Of a DNA stretch of 64,000 nucleotides, positions 5,189 to 50,900 are shown in pieces. The notes under the pieces are model-generated. The model made no database searches, had not been told where the DNA came from, and saw only the letters and a program-made list of their open reading frames with translations. The first letter of the stretch is position 1. Each line of letters begins with the position of its first letter. Source of the stretch: Octopus sinensis (lineage: Eukaryota). Location: assembly GCF_006345805.1 (NCBI RefSeq), contig NC_043014.1, positions 40,548,001 to 40,612,000 of the forward strand, read 5' to 3'. Position numbers and translations under genes: made by a program.

Positions 5189-5710
5189 CCATAAATCCTC
5201 GAGTATAATCCGCATTTTTTTCCCAAAATTTAATGGTCAAAATCCCTAGTGCATACTATATACGAGGTTAAAACTGAAAATTATTTTCTAAGCAATGTCT
5301 GAGTCTCTATTTGCTGTCTGGCAATGTTTATTCAGATGCATTTTGTGATGTCAGGCGCGAAAATACCTTAAGCTAAGCCTAAAAGCAATGAAGTCATAAA
5401 AGAATCATCCATAACTTGCAGTAAGCAACATTTATTAAAATAAAAGTATTCAGAACACAGAATAACATGTAACAAAAACAATTTGCAAATATATTTACAT
5501 TCCCATATAACAGTTAAGAACATCACAATTATTGTATTACACATGTGCGGAAGTGTTTGTTCGACTAGGTGCTGCTGGCTTAATTACGCACGACTCAAGT
5601 TACAGAAGGGGTGCGTATTATACACAAGGTTTAGGTTTTTCAGAAGTACAGCTCCCTAAAAATCCCCTGCGTATTATACTGAAGGGCGGACTATACTCGA
5701 AGATTTACGG
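5189..5710. mobile_element. Tc1/mariner-superfamily (Tc2/pogo-like) MITE
   Basis: TIR CCATAAATCCTCGAGTATAATCCGC / GCGGACTATACTCGAAGATTTACGG with TA on both sides. Confidence 0.75.
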
Positions 5711-5845
5711 TAGATATGAGACTCAAAAAGAAAACTAAGCTCGACATGTTCAATAAAAAAGCCTTGAAGGCAAGTGCTCCAGCATGACCACAGCTTAACA
5801 ACTCAATCCAGTAAAAAGAGCAAAGAGAAAAACAAATATTCTTAC

Positions 5846-6446
5846 CCAATTCCAAATTTGATGTTTCTTTTCTCTGTTTAGCATGGAGAAATGTGTAGAT
5901 CAGCATTGCTTCCTTGAAACTCTCGTCTTCAGCTCTGTCAACCAGAAGCGTCAGCAGACTGCGATTATTGGCCAAGTTCTTATAATAGAGCATTTGCGAC
6001 AATTTGACCAGATAAGAATTTTTCCTGTTCTTGTACACCGTCCATATTCTTATGGCTATCAAACACAATATCAAAGCAGTCACAAACGACCACTGAAAGT
6101 TCAACTCCACTAACGTGGTGAGGGTTTTGGCAACCACACCAGTGATAGCAATACTGATCGAAGCAGTGATAATGCCTTTATCTAAATGATTCAACTTGAT
6201 TCTGCAGTCAGGAAGCAGCATTTCAAGAGCATCTGTTGGCATATCTTTAAAGCCTTTTAATACAAGTTTGGTTTCTCCTTTCCGACGTAACGCCACAATC
6301 AATCTCCTGTAGTAGTCGGGATGCGGAATGGAAGACTTAGGAAATATTTCCCACATTCTGTTGTACCAATTCTTTTTCGGTACCACGGTGTTTAGGCCAA
6401 GCGCCCAAAAATGTAATATTTCATACTTACGAGGATCGACTTGAAT
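5846..6446 (-). CDS. TMEM143: TMEM143 coding exon 5 (DUF3754-like region with two TM segments): IQVDPRKYEILHFWALG...LVLKGFKDMP...YYKNLANNRSLLTLLVDRAEDESFKEAMLIY
   Basis: Acceptor ttcttctgttatag|ATT and donor TTGG|gtaag; 601 nt, phase 0 to 1. HFWALG, LKxFKDxP and ANNxxxL...RAEDExxKEAxLxY motifs are characteristic of TMEM143. Confidence 0.95.
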
Positions 6447-16860: not shown

Positions 16861-18521
16861 ATAATAAACAAAGGAATTCACTTTCTCTGCACCACCGTCT
16901 TCACCTCCAACTTAGTATTACCAACATCACTACAACTATCACAACAATCTCTAACACCAACATTGCTAATGTAGTCTATTATAATCACTACAGAAATCAC
17001 AGCAACAGGTGCACTAGCTATGAAGATGGGTTAGGTATATAGCAACGGTGATTGTGGTATATGACAAATGCATTACTTGTGAGAGTGTGGTACTGGGTTA
17101 AAGAAAAGTGGATCATTGTAGCTAATGGTGTTGGTGTATGTACTTGTACATGCAGGCATGGCTATGTGGTTCAGAAGGTACTTTATTTCATGATATTCCA
17201 GTCCATACAACAGAAAATCCACAACAACTGAAGGTGGATGAAGAGGAAGGATAACTTTGTGATGGACATGCATTCCATTTGGAGGAGATGGATCTTGTAC
17301 TCTCAGTAGCTTAAATACAACAGAAACAGAAATAAGCTCCAGCCAAATGAGCCTTTGATTCAAGCCAGACTTTGACTTTTAATATGTATGTGTATGTGTG
17401 TGTGTGTGTGTGGCACGTATATATATGGTGGGGGCTCAATGGCCCAGTGTAAAAGCACCAAAGGGAGGGGCTGGTGATTCAGACGATGATGAAGACCGGC
17501 TGTAGGAACCCAATCAATGCATCGTGATGGACTGGCGTCCCATCCAGGGACAAATATACACACTAGAGAAACTGGGAAATCATCCCTAAGTTCCCTATGG
17601 AGTAATGTGGACTAACCTGTCGATAATTATAATTTAATAAACTTTTGTGTTGTTAGAATATAAGAGAAATTATTGTTTTGTTGTTAGAGAATAAAACTAG
17701 TTGAATTAAATGAAATGAACAGAACTTCCAGTTTGTCATTCGACTTCTATTTCTAGCACAGAAATACTACAATGTCAGTTTTATGTTTTACCTCACAACA
17801 AATGAATATTAATTCACTACAGTACCTAAAAAAAAAACAAACAATGTACTTACAAAAGCAGTTATGAAGAAGATTGGAGCTATATGAGAAAGAAACAAAG
17901 AGATGAAACATATAAAAATATGCCAATGTTTCGTTAATATTAATCATGAAGGATGGAAGGGAGAGAAGTGGGGGATCAGATATCAAGGACTGTTGTGGTT
18001 TTGGGAGAGAAAACAGAAAAATTTCTTTAATTTTGAAGATGAAGTTAGAAAGAGGTTTTTTTTTATATATATATACGACAGGTTTCTTTCAGTTTCCGTC
18101 TACCATATCCACTCACAAGGTTTTGGTCGGCCTGAGACTATAGTAGGAGACACTTGCCCAAGGTGCCACGCAGGGGGAATGAGCCCAGAACTATGTGGTT
18201 GGTAAGCAAGCTACTTACAACACAGCCGCTCCTGTGCCTATATATATATATATATATATATAAACTCTTTAACTAGTTTCAACTTGAAAGCTGCAGTCAT
18301 GCTAAGACATCCCTTATGTATATATATATATATATATATATACTAAGCAATAAGGGTTTAGCAACGAGTTGCCTTACCACATACCGAATTTGAAATAGCA
18401 GTCAAAGGGTTATAGCTATTTCTTCTACTAAAAAGGGAGATCTCAGTAAAAACAGCATTTGGAAGGCAGACACAAACAGGTAAGAGAGAATGAATTGACT
18501 GCAATCTATCATACTTTTTTT

Positions 18522-18640
18522 TAGTTATCCACGGACGTACGTTTCGAAATCAAGTTTTAAGGAAAGCATAAGAATTAAATATTAAATATTAAATAATTCT
18601 ATCTTACCGAAACTTCTTTTCTCTTCAGCGTAGAATACTA
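18522..18640 (-). ncRNA. Type I hammerhead ribozyme motif (sense to TMEM143 pre-mRNA)
   Basis: Reverse complement of the same motif: TCTTCAG at 18622-18628 and GACGTACGTTTC at 18534-18545. Confidence 0.8.
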
Positions 18641-19121
18641 TAATCATAAATGATTATATATTGAATTTTGAGATACCAGAAGGCACCAACTCAACTCAGT
18701 ATCAGAGCGAGCTAGAATCCGCAACTGGTATCACCGAATTCAATTTGTGAATGAAACGACTGTGTCAACAGCCCCTTCCCACCCGCGTGTAGCCAAAACA
18801 AGATGCTGTGGTCATCTACTGAGATAAAATATGGTTATCCGTAATAATGAAGGGTGAAATTAATTAATTTGGAAAAATTATCAATTACACCAAGTAGTCT
18901 TCGGCATGTAAAAGCCTCATTCGAGGAAAATTTAAGTAATACTAAGCAATAAGGGTTTAGCAACGAGTTGCCTTACCACATACCGAATTTAGAAATAGCA
19001 GTCAAAGGGTTATAGCTATTTCTTCTACTAAAAAGGGAGATCTCAGTAAAAACAGCATTTGGAAGGCAGACACAAACAGGTAAGAGAGAATGAATTGACT
19101 GCAATCTATCATACATTTTTT

Positions 19122-19240
19122 TAGTTATCCACGGACGTACGTTTCGAAATCAAGTTTTAAGGAAAGCATAAGAATTAAATATTAAATATTAAATAATTCT
19201 ATCTTACCGAAACTTCTTTTCTCTTCAGCGTAGAATACTA
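19122..19240 (-). ncRNA. Type I hammerhead ribozyme motif (second minus copy)
   Basis: Same motif, exactly 600 nt from the other minus copy. Confidence 0.8.
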
Positions 19241-19415
19241 TAATCATAAATGATTATATATTGAATTTTGAGATACCAGAAGGCACCAACTCAACTCAGT
19301 ATCAGAGCGAGCTAGAATCCGCAACTGGTATCACCGAATTCAATTTGTGAATGAAACGACTGTGTCAACAGCCCCTTCCCACCCTCAAAATTCAATATAT
19401 AATCATTTATGATTA

Positions 19416-19534
19416 TAGTATTCTACGCTGAAGAGAAAAGAAGTTTCGGTAAGATAGAATTATTTAATATTTAATATTTAATTCTTATGCTTTCCTTAAA
19501 ACTTGATTTCGAAACGTACGTCCGTGGATAACTA
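19416..19534 (+). ncRNA. Type I hammerhead ribozyme motif
   Basis: CTGAAGA at 19428-19434. Helix II closes GAAA(19435-38)/TTTC(19507-10). GAAA at 19511-14; helix III AC-GTAC-GT; GTC with predicted cleavage after C19522. Helix I TCTACG/CGTGGA extends further with bulges. Confidence 0.8.
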
Positions 19535-20012
19535 AAAAAATGTATGATAGATTGCAGTCAATTCATTCTCTCTTACCTGTTTGTGTCTGCCTTCCAAATG
19601 CTTTTTACTGAGATCTCCCTTTTTAGTAGAAGAAATAGCTATAACCCTTTGACTGCTATTTCTAAATTCGGTATGTGGTAAGGCAACTCGTTGCTAAACC
19701 CTTATTGCTTAGTATTACTTAAATTTTCCTCGAATGAGGCTTTTACATGCCGAAGACTACTTGGTGTAATTGATATTTTTCCAAATTAATTAATTTCACC
19801 CTTCATTATTACGGATAACCATATTTTATCTCAGTAGATGACCACAGCATCTTGTTTTGGCTACACGCGGGTGGGAAGGGGCTGTTGACACAGTCGTTTC
19901 ATTCACAAATTGAATTCGGTGATACCAGTTGCGGATTCTAGCTCGCTCTGATACTGAGTTGAGTTGGTGCCTTCTGGTATCTCAAAATTCAATATATAAT
20001 CATTTATGATTA

Positions 20013-20131
20013 TAGTATTCTACGCTGAAGAGAAAAGAAGTTTCGGTAAGATAGAATTATTTAATATTTAATATTTAATTCTTATGCTTTCCTAAAAACT
20101 TGATTTCGAAACGTACGTCCGTGGATAACTA
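20013..20131 (+). ncRNA. Type I hammerhead ribozyme motif (second plus copy)
   Basis: CTGAAGA at 20025-20031 and GAAACGTACGTC at 20108-20119. The predicted cleavage site is 597 nt from the first plus copy. Confidence 0.8.
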
Positions 20132-20749
20132 AAAAAATGTATGATAGATTGCAGTCAATTCATTCTCTCTACCTGTTTGTGTCTGCCTTCCAAATGCTGT
20201 TTTTACTGAGATCTCCCTTTTAGTAGAAGAAATAGCTATAACCCTTTGACTGCTATTTCTAAATTCGGTATGTGGTAAGGCAACTCGTTGCTAAACCCTT
20301 ATTGCTTAGTATTACTTAAATTTTCTCGAATGAGGCTTTTACATGCCGAAGACTACTTGGTGTAATTGATTATTTTTCCAAATTAATTAATTTCACCCTT
20401 CATTATTACGGATATATTATATTAATATAATATATATATATATATATATATATGCATGTCTCTGTACATTTGCATGTTTTTGAGTTTGTAAACTGAGATT
20501 GTTTTCTGTTCTGGTTGTGTATTAAAAAAATGTGGTCACCTTACATATGAATGATGCAAGAATAGGCCAAGGTATACCAAAGAAAACTTGAGATGATATG
20601 ATATCAGACTTGAAGAGATTGCATCAAAAATGAGAAGACATAGAATGTTTCATTACTGATATCACCAACCAATTTGGGAATAAAAAAAAAAGAAAAACAA
20701 GAATAGAAATTTGAATAATGTTGATAATCTAAAACGATGTTTTATTTAC

Positions 20750-25580: not shown

Positions 25581-25616
25581 ATATATTTATATATATATAT
25601 ATATATATGTATACAT

Positions 25617-25871
25617 AAATTTCTATAATTATAAGTATAATTATAATTAGGGTTCAGCAAAATTGCTTCACCACATACTGAAATTTAGAAATAGCAGTTA
25701 AATACTATTCTACTATCATAAGGTATCTCCTGAAGCAATTTTGCTGAACTCTAATTATAATTATGCTTATAATTATAGAATTTTTGTATAAGGTTACCGG
25801 TAATGGTTCTTTTAACATACCAAACTACTTGGTAAAATTATTAATTATTAATTGATTAATTAATTTTACCC

Positions 25872-25876
<5 letters not shown>
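25617..25876. mobile_element. (TA)n-flanked fold-back related to the 600-bp hammerhead unit
   Basis: Shares CCACATAC(C/T)GAA(A)TTTAGAAATAGCAGT and CTACTTGGT..AATTAATT..ACCCTT with 18341-20413. Inverted arms GGTTCAGCAAAATTGCTTCA / TGAAGCAATTTTGCTGAAC. Confidence 0.65.
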
Positions 25877-28181: not shown

Positions 28182-28349
28182 TGGTAAGAAGCTTGCTTCC
28201 CAACCACATGGTTCCGGGTTCAGTCCCACTGTGCGGTACCTTGGGCAAGTGTCTTTTGCTATTGCCTTAGGTTGACTAAAGCCTTGTGAATGGATTTGGT
28301 AGAGGGAAACTTAAAAAGACTGTCAGCATTGGTGATGGTGCTAGTGCCA

Positions 28350-29165
28350 AGTAAAAAGCACTGGAGCTGGTGTCACGTAAATAGCACTGGTGCCATATAA
28401 AAAGCAGTGGAGCTGGTGTCACATAAATGGCATTGGTGCCATGTAAAAAGCACTGGAGCTGGTGTCACATAAATGGCATTGGTGCCATGTAAAAAGCACT
28501 GGAGCTGGTGTCACATAAATGGCATTGGTGCCATGTAAAAAGCACTGGAGCTGGTGTCACATAAATGGCATTGGTGCCATGTAAAAAGCACTGGAGCTGG
28601 TGTCACATAAATGGCATTGGTGCCATGTAAAAAGCAGTGGAGCTGGTGTCACATAAATGGCATTGGTGCCATGTAAAAAGCACTGGAGCTGGTGTCACAT
28701 AAATGGCATTGGTGCCATGTAAAAAGCAGTGGAGCTGGTGTCACATAAATGGCATTGGTGCCATGTAAAAAGCACTGGAGCTGGTGTCACATAAATGGCA
28801 TTGGTGCCATGTAAAAAGCAGTGGAGCTGGTGTCACATAAATGGCATTGGTGCCATGTAAAAAGCACTGGAGCTGGTGTCACATAAATGGCATTGGTGCC
28901 ATGTAAAAAGCACTGGAGCTGGTGTCACATAAATGGCATTGGTGCCATGTAAAAAGCACTGGAGCTGGTGTCACATAAATGGCATTGGTGCCATGTAAAA
29001 AGCACTGGAGCTGGTGTCACATAAATGGCATTGGTGCCATGTAAAAAGCACTGGAGCTGGTGTCACATAAATGGCATTGGTGCCATGTAAAAAGCACTGG
29101 AGCTGGTGTCACATAAATAGCACTAGTGCCATGTATTAAGCAGTGGAGCTGGTTCCACATAAAAA
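28350..29165. repeat. 46-bp minisatellite, about 17 copies
   Basis: Unit AAAAAGCACTGGAGCTGGTGTCACATAAATGGCATTGGTGCCATGT. Confidence 0.95.
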
Positions 29166-48209: not shown

Positions 48210-49975
48210 TTTGTAAAAATCACTTGTGCTGGTGCCACGTAAAAAGCTCTTGTGTCAGTGCCACGTAAAAGGCACTCATGTTGGTGCTATGTGATAAGCA
48301 CTTGTGCCAGCATAATGTAGAAAGCACTCATGCCAGTGCCATGTAGAATACACTTGTACTGGAGCCATGTGAAAAGCATTCATGCTGGTGCCATGTATAA
48401 AGCACATGTGCCGGCACCATGTGAAAGGCACACGGGCTGGTTCCACATAGAAAGGACGCATGCCAGCACCACATAAAAGGCACTTGTGCTGGTGCCATGT
48501 GAAAAGCATTCATGCTGGTGCCATGTATAAAGCACCATGTGAAAGGCACATGTGCTGGTGCCACATAGAAAGGACGCATGCCAGCACCACATAAAAGGCA
48601 CTTGTGCTGGAGCCATGTAAAAAGCATTCATGCTGGTGCCATGTATAAAGCACCATGTGAAAGGCACATGTGCTGGTGCCACATAGAAAGGACGCATGCC
48701 AGCACCACATAAAAGGCACTTGTGCTGGAGCCATGTAAAAAGCATTCATGCTGGTGCCATGTATAAAGCACCATGTGAAAGGCACATGTGCTGGTGTCAC
48801 ATAGAAAGGACGCATGCCAGCACCACATAAAAGGCACTTGTGCTGGAGCCATGTAAAAAGCATTCATGCTGGTGCCATGTATAAAGCACCATGTGAAAGG
48901 CACATGTGCTGGTGCCACATAGAAAGGACGCATGCCAGCACCACATAAAAGGCACTTGTGCTGGAGCCATGTAAAAAGCATTCATGCTGGTGCCATGTAT
49001 AAAGCACCATGTGAAAGGCACATGTGCTGGTGTCACATAGAAAGGACGCATGCCAGCACCACATAAAAGGCACTTGTGCTGGAGCCATGTAAAAAGCATT
49101 CATGCTGGTGCCATGTATAAAGCACCATGTGAAAGGCACATGTGCTGGTTCCACATAGAAAGGCACTTGTGCTGGAGCCATGTAAAAAGCATTCATGCTG
49201 GTGCCATGTATAAAGCACCATGTGAGAGGCACATGTGCTGGTGCCACATAGAAAGGATGCATGCCAGCACCACATAAAAGGCACTTGTGCTGGAGCCATG
49301 TAAAAAGCATTCATGCTGGTGCCATGTATAAAGCACCATGTGAAAGGCACATGTGCTGGTGTCACATAGAAAGGACGCATGCCAGCACCACATAAAAGGC
49401 ACTTGTGCTGGAGCCATGTAAAAAGCATTCATGCTGGTGCCATGTATAAAGCACCATGTGAAAGGCACATGTGCTGGTGTCACATAGAAAGGACGCATGC
49501 CAGCACCACATAAAAGCACTTGTGCTGGAGCCATGTAAAAAGCATTCATGCTGGTGCCATGTATAAAGCACCATGTGAAAGGCACATGTGCTGTGCCACA
49601 TAGAAAGGACGCATGCCAGCACCACATAAAAGGCACTTGTGCTGGAGCCATGTAAAAAGCATTCATGCTGGTGCCATGTATAAAGCACCATGTGAAAGGC
49701 ACATGTGCTGGTGTCACAAGAAAGGATGCATGCCAGCACCACATAAAAGGCACTTGTGCTGGAGCCATGTAAAAAGCATTCATGCTGGTGCCATGTATAA
49801 AGCACCATGTGAAAGGCACATGTGCTGGTGTCACAAAGAAAGGACGCATGCCAGCACCACATAAAAGGCACTTGTGCTGGAGCCATGTATAAAGCACCAT
49901 GTGAAAGGCACATGTGCTGGTGCCACATAGAAAGGACTCACGCCTGCACCACATAAAAAGCACTTATGCTGGTGC
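48210..49975. repeat. 118-bp higher-order minisatellite built from ~25-bp monomers
   Basis: Period of 118 nt, seen in ORF starts at 48627/48745/48863/48981/49099. Monomer GTGCTGGTGCCAYRTAAAARGCAC. Confidence 0.95.
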
Positions 49976-50900
49976 TGTGTACCAAGCACCCAACACGCTC
50001 TGTAAAGTATTTGGTGTCAGGAAAGGCATCCATCTATAGAACTCACACCAAAACAGACAAATGGAACCCAGACAGCTGGCCAGCTCCTGTCAAACTATCC
50101 GATCCATGCAGGCATGGAAAACAAACATTAAACGATGATGATGATGATGATGACTGATTGTCCCTTAAAGTTATATAATCTCTACTGAAGATCTCGTCAA
50201 TGATATAAAAAGCTTTTTACTACATGAGAAAGTCAAGCTCACTTATTATTGTTTAGTCCCAAATTAACCTTGATCAAACCATGCCAGTCTTGATCATCCC
50301 ATCTCTGTGTATATGTGAAACTACATTAATGAATGTGTCCATTTGTTTGTTAAGATGGTGAGGTGTAATGTGAGATTTGGCTGCTATTTCTTGCTTGTCG
50401 AGTTAACTTCACAGTGGCTTGCTTCCTTTGTTAGCTCCTCAAACTCTTTTACATAGGAAGAGAAGTCAATACAAAGGTTAAACATAGGATCATCATCATC
50501 ATCATTTAATGTCTGCTTTCCATGCTAGCATGGGTTGGATGATTTGACTGAGGTCTGGCGAGCCAGATGGCTGCTCCAGACTCCAATCTGATCTGGCAGA
50601 GTTTCTACAACTGGATGCCCTTCCTAACGCCAACTACTCCAAGAGTGTAGTATGTGCTTTTACATGCCACTGGCACGAATGCCAGTCAGGCGATACTGGC
50701 AATGGCCACACTCAAATGGTGCTTTTTATGTGCCACCTGCACAGGAGCCAGTCCAGCGGCACTAGCAACGACCTCGCTCGAATGTTTTTTCACGTGCCAC
50801 CAGCACAAGGTGTTAATGAAAATTACCAAAGTAGATTTTTAAAAAGTGTTGTGAGTTAAATAAAGGAATAAGACTGTTTTGTAAAAGAAGAATAAAATAT

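Follow-up and report, generated by a model that had tools for sequence, protein, structure and literature searches.

A young non-coding family of tandem hammerhead repeats in Octopus sinensis, likely a non-LTR retrozyme mobilised by a Penelope-like enzyme

The window, i.e. the whole 64,000-nt stretch of Octopus sinensis DNA analysed here (NC_043014.1, positions 40,548,001 to 40,612,000), holds at 18340-20414 a whole element flanked on both sides by (TA)n tracts. Its features are as follows, unit positions being counted from the nucleotide after the predicted cut (window position 19523 is unit position 1).

18315..18339: left (TA)n target tract; across the family, outer ends abut on TA repeats.
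18340..19384, minus strand: left arm, comprising a partial unit (347-597), a full unit (19133-18534) and a partial unit (1-193); its outer end is the short site, S.
18526..18636, minus strand: candidate type I hammerhead, predicted cut after GUC at 18534.
19126..19236, minus strand: candidate type I hammerhead, predicted cut after GUC at 19134.
19384: head-to-head inversion junction, with the 5'-truncated ends at unit positions 347 and 459 and a 1-nt overlap.
19384..20414, plus strand: right arm, comprising a partial unit (459-597), a full unit (19523-20119) and a partial unit (1-295); its outer end is the long site, L.
19420..19530, plus strand: candidate type I hammerhead, predicted cut after GUC at 19522, with a 76-nt helix II and a palindromic helix III.
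19523..20119, plus strand: 597-nt cut-to-cut monomer (predicted circle), with a predicted fold far stabler than its shuffles.
19622..19824, plus strand: structured module (unit ~100-302), common to sister families, holding S (19715) and L (19817/19824).
20017..20127, plus strand: candidate type I hammerhead, predicted cut after GUC at 20119.
20415..20453: right (TA)n target tract.

The sequence-only reading of this DNA had presented four type I hammerhead cores in copies of an ORF-less ~600-bp unit that occurs in tandem on each strand between (TA)n tracts. All this was recovered: the predicted cuts are spaced by 597 nt on the plus strand and 600 nt on the minus strand; the longest ATG ORF encodes 47 aa; and the cores CUGAAGA...GAAAC-GUAC-GUC lie at 19428-19522 and 20025-20119 (plus) and at 19228-19134 and 18628-18534 (minus). 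The tandem and inverted layout also stands, but not the two complete units ascribed to each arm, which consists of one full and two partial units. The unit has a GC content of 35%, and no tRNA or tRNA-derived promoter was found in the element. Four hammerhead core matches occur in the real window versus 0.16 per shuffled window, and the observation is real and non-artefactual. Elsewhere, the window carries a 251-aa open frame with a DUF3754 domain (5694-6446, minus strand), probably an exon of a host gene, and two young minisatellite arrays with 46-nt and 118-nt repeats (28344-29163 and 48212-49990, respectively) that are 97-98% alike.

Judged by its core (CUGANGA, GAAA and NUH), its helices I-III and its open helix I, the window repeat has the build of a type I hammerhead, and a strict core-plus-helix pattern was matched by 119 of 157 full units, with 0-2 substitutions per core position. 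The Rfam hammerhead models, named beforehand as a check, gave no match at the gathering score and none at E<=10, probably because helix II is ~76 nt long. Folding of the plus-strand ribozyme returned helix I and the long helix II, with a z-score of only −1.4 for the ribozyme alone, and the 597-nt monomer is highly self-paired (z-score −5.17; none of 100 shuffles was equally stable). In the unconstrained minimum-free-energy fold of the natural stretch holding both plus-strand ribozymes, these are predicted to form the double hammerhead that had been anticipated, with an 8-bp helix III between the copies and an energy of −191.5 kcal/mol, as compared to −184.9 kcal/mol for two single folds (6.6 kcal/mol lower).

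The self-complementarity of helix III is kept in copies with different letters (ACGUACGU, ACGCGCGU, ACUCGAGU and ACGUUGACGU, the last with a G-U pair), and is broken in one two-copy variant. In eight hand-picked copies of the window's family (family A) and its sister families, 9 of the 14 pairs were changed on both sides and 94.5% of the cells were paired, as compared to only 22-43% for slid structures; the covariation score was reached by none of 500 shuffles, a shuffling that does not control relatedness. Furthermore, a helix I U-G pair is replaced by C-G in every unit of one subfamily. The covariation of the helices, together with the conserved self-complementarity of helix III, supports a selection on a ribozyme that, by its sequence, would be capable of acting as a dimer. 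Dimers formed via a palindromic helix III are known (PMC4209133, PMC6765202), and the short palindromic helix III and predicted double hammerhead resemble those of newt and axolotl satellite 2 and of the minimal hammerheads of Penelope-like elements (PLEs), as described in PMC7229834, PMC4209133 and PMC6765202. In the window, helix III is a two-pair stem with a tetraloop, as in the axolotl Amex2/invertebrate type described there, for which cleavage as a monomer is also possible. Further hammerhead repeats, with ACUCGAGU or ACCAUGGU as helix III, were seen at L086/L126 5660, L113 8514, L275 354 and L288 433-481; they apparently belong to separate families.

A DNA search yielded 236 matches in the 33 scored of 578 candidate regions, and an exact 20-mer spanning the cut site occurs 1,261 times genome-wide (control, 0), the family arrays being scattered over many contigs. 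Full units are 95-100% alike, in agreement with the young age proposed from the window alone. Sister families (B, C and others), with units of 558 to 599 nt, have in common with it a ~200-nt module whose pattern occurs 4,440 times in the genome, and a short-helix hammerhead pattern occurs 3,522 times (both controls, 0). In 28 dereplicated copies, chosen through a motif in one strand, the module retains its stems and shows compensatory changes in them. Parts of the unit are present in 19 public runs (8 studies and 5 organism labels). The window itself harbours, at 25609-25873, a short inverted sister-family copy that is bordered by TA tracts, has a short end and a long end, and has lost the ribozyme part. 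Long perfect hairpin repeats at or around TA tracts, which are targets of these insertions, were observed in the L031 flanks, L033 46-270 and L182 1680-1880.

The outer ends of the arrays are located at unit ~193 (S) or ~295/302 (L), away from the cleavage site, and each coincides with 3-4 nt of TA microhomology, in contrast to the non-homologous starts reported for an anole element; the (TA)n flanks mask any target-site duplication. The Penelope-type tandem and inverted ends noted earlier are present, along with two fixed internal end sites ~100 nt apart that had been missed. In a first set made of the 33 best-scoring loci, all 22 inverted loci have one S and one L end. Two of them, L058 and L059, share flanks, so that 21 are independent, a result of probability at most 0.5^21 if the ends were independent. 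These two small contigs have identical flanks and variants with different inversion junctions, and may represent alleles, duplicates or an assembly difference. An S end occurs in 10 of the 11 single-arm loci of this set.

The rule was replicated with 29 C1 loci, sampled in the order of the map. S and L were combined in 13 of 15 inverted loci (one of them a diverged copy ending at 280), the other two having one off-site end (246 and 152), and neither S plus S nor L plus L was found among the 15. All 12 plain single-arm loci have an S end. The set also contains one locus with a 13-nt L stub and one chimera, and inverted loci are adjoined by three further pieces, two short ones with an L end and one with an S end. 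Among 38 inverted clusters of relatives, 12 of which were chosen with a query favouring one L end, 29 combined S and L, 7 were unclear and 2 were called S plus S; re-examined by eye, the latter two proved to be an interrupted arm and two adjacent elements. TA loose ends occur at the same end sites in contigs of runs X1, X2 and X15. We infer that S and L are Penelope-type priming sites, and their strict pairing suggests that two priming events are coupled.

That the tandem and inverted layout is an assembly artefact is hardly credible: among the contigs listed for other runs none bridges the window junction or the whole stretch, and there is homopolymer noise among units, yet the junction differs at every locus, the S plus L rule is obeyed by both samples and by other families, and contigs of other runs have TA junctions at these two sites.

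Coding PLEs of the same genome (reverse transcriptase plus GIY-YIG) too have two sites at which they end in (TA)n, the tails measuring 35 and 59 nt (F1 and N2), and the four inverted copies seen all have one short and one tailed end. In published work, the PLE tail is often at one end only (Craig et al., PMC8557442), the PLE protein, a predicted dimer, nicks and extends both target strands (Frangieh et al., PMC11167929), and reverse transcription begins at two internal sites bounding the tail (PMC11167929). The window's family resembles the endonuclease-bearing (EN+) PLEs described in PMC8557442, PMC3846280 and PMC11167929 in its partial tandems, its adjacent inverted 5'-truncated copy, its tail at one end, its microsatellite targets and its two internal starts of reverse transcription, which are inferred here; with these arms, tail and target it takes the form of a non-autonomous PLE. 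It differs from them in having no ORF, a tail of ~100 nt rather than 30-40 nt and up to 12 full units per arm, and no sequence link to a coding PLE was found in the families sampled. Like the non-autonomous Chlamys/MRC1 elements, it consists of non-coding sequences that would parasitise PLEs and form multicopy head-to-tail insertions. However, as far as PMC8557442 describes them, Chlamys/MRC1 are devoid of canonical hammerheads and resemble the 3' end of their partner, a kind of partner that was not found here.

The partner search covered 30 GIY-YIG loci plus 20 wider stretches. With 150 of 5,029 GIY-YIG candidates scored, no family copy was found adjoining a Penelope ORF, where the sequence-only reading had proposed to look, and neither the module nor a ~100-nt tail was found in any coding PLE of the families sampled. 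Module matches beside PLE ORFs in L105 and L231 were rejected as separate insertions in the TA tract beyond the PLE end. A family C copy in L163 that directly adjoins an N-terminal PLE fragment was discarded as a single case, and relatives of that fragment continue into reverse transcriptase sequence. Several coding families were encountered along the way. A high-copy PLE family (L120 2532-4874, L119, L090 and relatives) has a 781-aa reverse transcriptase plus GIY-YIG ORF and a 35-nt tail; its pLTR bears a minimal hammerhead-like motif with a core variant, which we take to be U3-A8. A young PLE-like family (L219 4452-7577 and L233-L262; 292 candidates) has a 1,042-aa open frame with no Pfam match, a 59-nt tail and ORF ends that are 97-99% alike, and a sister of it has long asparagine-rich inserts.

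The family also matches the animal non-LTR retrozymes (Cervera and de la Pena 2020, PMC7229834; Li et al. 2026, preprint 10.64898/2026.07.22.740005) in being a non-coding, low-GC (<50%) tandem without ORF, every unit of which bears a type I hammerhead, in its highly self-paired predicted monomer and in the co-occurrence of PLEs; a plant LTR retrozyme, with type III hammerheads in LTRs, is ruled out by the type I topology in tandem units. Such animal retrozymes and their circles have been published, with a proposed mobilisation by PLEs (PMC7229834, PMC7761336). The unit is ~600 nt long, as compared to 170-400 nt in PMC7229834 and 51-972 bp in 10.64898/2026.07.22.740005; helix II reaches 76 nt, and the circle here is predicted. 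Dispersed inverted insertions with two fixed ends are without description in the accessible parts of PMC7229834 and 10.64898/2026.07.22.740005. The latter links non-LTR retrozymes to pLTRs in vertebrates, reports that one of nine predicted retrozyme dimers cleaved and eight did not, and leaves octopus, cephalopod and mollusc unmentioned in its accessible text. A squid genome paper (PMC6962438) gives 235 Rfam hammerhead matches, without analysis in the part available. Our literature search found no description of the window's family, which supplements and repeat databases may list. This is a new family of a published class, with unusually clear insertion evidence.

From these data we propose that this young non-coding family is likely a non-LTR retrozyme for which a predicted 597-nt RNA circle serves as template and a Penelope-like element supplies the reverse transcriptase/endonuclease; the young, non-autonomous and Penelope-linked retrozyme of the sequence-only reading thereby gains support from copy identity, covariation, the double-hammerhead fold and the end structure. 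In PMC7229834, PMC7761336 and 10.64898/2026.07.22.740005, the copying of circles by Penelope-like enzymes is put forward as a hypothesis for the movement of animal retrozymes. We regard Penelope-type mobilisation as highly probable, rolling-circle copying of a ribozyme-made circle as rather probable and the synthesis of both arms from one circle as a tentative idea. The proposed pathway would operate as follows. First, a tandem array would be transcribed by read-through. Second, adjacent ribozymes would associate through their palindromic helix III to form a double hammerhead and cut out the monomer. Third, by analogy with other retrozymes, a host ligase would close the monomer into a circle. 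Fourth, a Penelope-type protein dimer would bind the structured module and nick both strands of a (TA)n tract, and cDNA would be primed internally, on one strand at S (~193) and on the other at L (~295/302). Fifth, each reverse transcriptase would travel round the template for a variable distance, after which the truncated ends would be joined head-to-head, or the S-primed arm alone would survive. Against this scheme speak the in vitro insertion of ribozyme-dead RNA and the start sites alike for both strands in PMC11167929, the eight retrozyme dimers of 10.64898/2026.07.22.740005 that did not cleave, the negative Rfam result, the TA microhomology at the ends and the failure to find a coding partner in the PLE families sampled.

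The bearing of the arrays on the template is as follows. The inner ends are spread round the unit (7 of 92 at the cut site versus 6.2 expected), and 188 of 204 cut-site junctions are identical, the remainder showing mostly single-letter changes. These two observations exclude a linear cut monomer, which predicts a pile-up of inner ends at the cut site, and fit a circle. L1-type twin priming is ruled out too, as each arm has its own 3' end. Locus-specific variants are common to the units of both arms (371G in the window, and others in L039, L043, L061 and further loci). At recurrent-variant columns the mean differences are 0.82 within an arm, 0.37 between arms and 3.61 between loci (2.27 without a divergent subfamily), pieces below 85% identity, two noisy units and the duplicate locus L059 being left out. 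This pattern of junctions and variants fits a circle and also an uncut multimer from a homogeneous donor: homogeneous arrays alone do not single out a circle, as the RNAs of one homogeneous donor array share variants. In 7 of the 13 largest loci a variant occurs in only some units, which goes against a pure single-circle origin; some of these partial-unit variants are homopolymer noise, and the one in L040 looks like the local duplication of a three-unit block.

Copying of an uncut linear multimer of the donor array by a Penelope-type enzyme, the ribozyme being a pLTR inheritance not needed for copying, is the chief alternative, though we consider it unlikely. A homogeneous donor would yield homogeneous daughters, some mosaic variants (one alternating, in L046) fit the copying of a mixed array, and ribozyme-dead RNA is still inserted in vitro (PMC11167929). 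However, truncated copying would shorten the arrays at each generation, yet the largest, near-identical ones reach 11-12 full units, with up to 12 per arm. In addition, inversion junctions were not repeated at unrelated loci among the 21 compared, and the covariation of the ribozyme helices across families implies a selection on cleavage.

Still less probable is the insertion of a monomer by Penelope-type priming followed by satellite-like array growth through unequal crossover or gene conversion, a kind of local growth discussed in 10.64898/2026.07.22.740005. It accounts for the homogeneity within loci, the period-3 variant pattern of L040 and the block pattern of L036, but agrees poorly with arms that are often both multimeric (~99% identity) and have outer ends that are fixed and inner ends that are random, and with arrays scattered over many contigs; such growth probably acts as a secondary process. 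As for fold-back self-priming on one strand (PMC3846280), which would replace two priming events as the origin of the inverted arm, we hold it to be very improbable. Variants common to both arms, including one in the innermost unit of each arm of L043, are compatible with it, but it predicts palindromic junctions and matching phases, whereas the two arms differ widely in inner phase and in length, and ~100 nt of the L arm are absent from the outer end of the S arm.

Returning to the predicted circle, two observations are weak hints of a shared template. First, the inner ends of L arms are concentrated in the interval 150-180, shortly beyond S, which holds 8 of 34 as compared to 2 of 58 (scan p 0.03; this interval was picked after the fact). 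Second, a chimera (L296 1623-7678; C1 near 18.22 Mb) comprises a family B minus arm, a family B plus piece and, attached through a 3-nt microhomology, a family A array of nine units, and its B pieces (201-415 and 400-558/1-200) sum to one B circle before the switch. This single case points to a switch of template from one family to another; it could also result from a deletion upon insertion.

The anatomy of the element, the pairing of S and L, the random inner ends and the variants common to both arms are features of the arrays as they stand in the genome. Their reading as direct records of rolling-circle retrotransposition, in which a reverse transcriptase dimer on one circle would use two fixed starts ~100 nt apart and opposite strands of the TA target, is possible but still speculative. 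If true, it would explain both the Penelope tail on one end and the inverted structure, the origin of PLE tandem and inverted insertions being called open in PMC8557442 and PMC11167929. It would also imply a superfamily of circular-RNA parasites (thousands of hammerheads in the genome) that have one structured docking module in common and are able to swap templates mid-synthesis, as in L296. With its many young insertions, strict two-site end rule, 600-nt template and 200-nt conserved module, the family offers a compact test substrate, and it is a possible natural source of circular RNA in the host animal.
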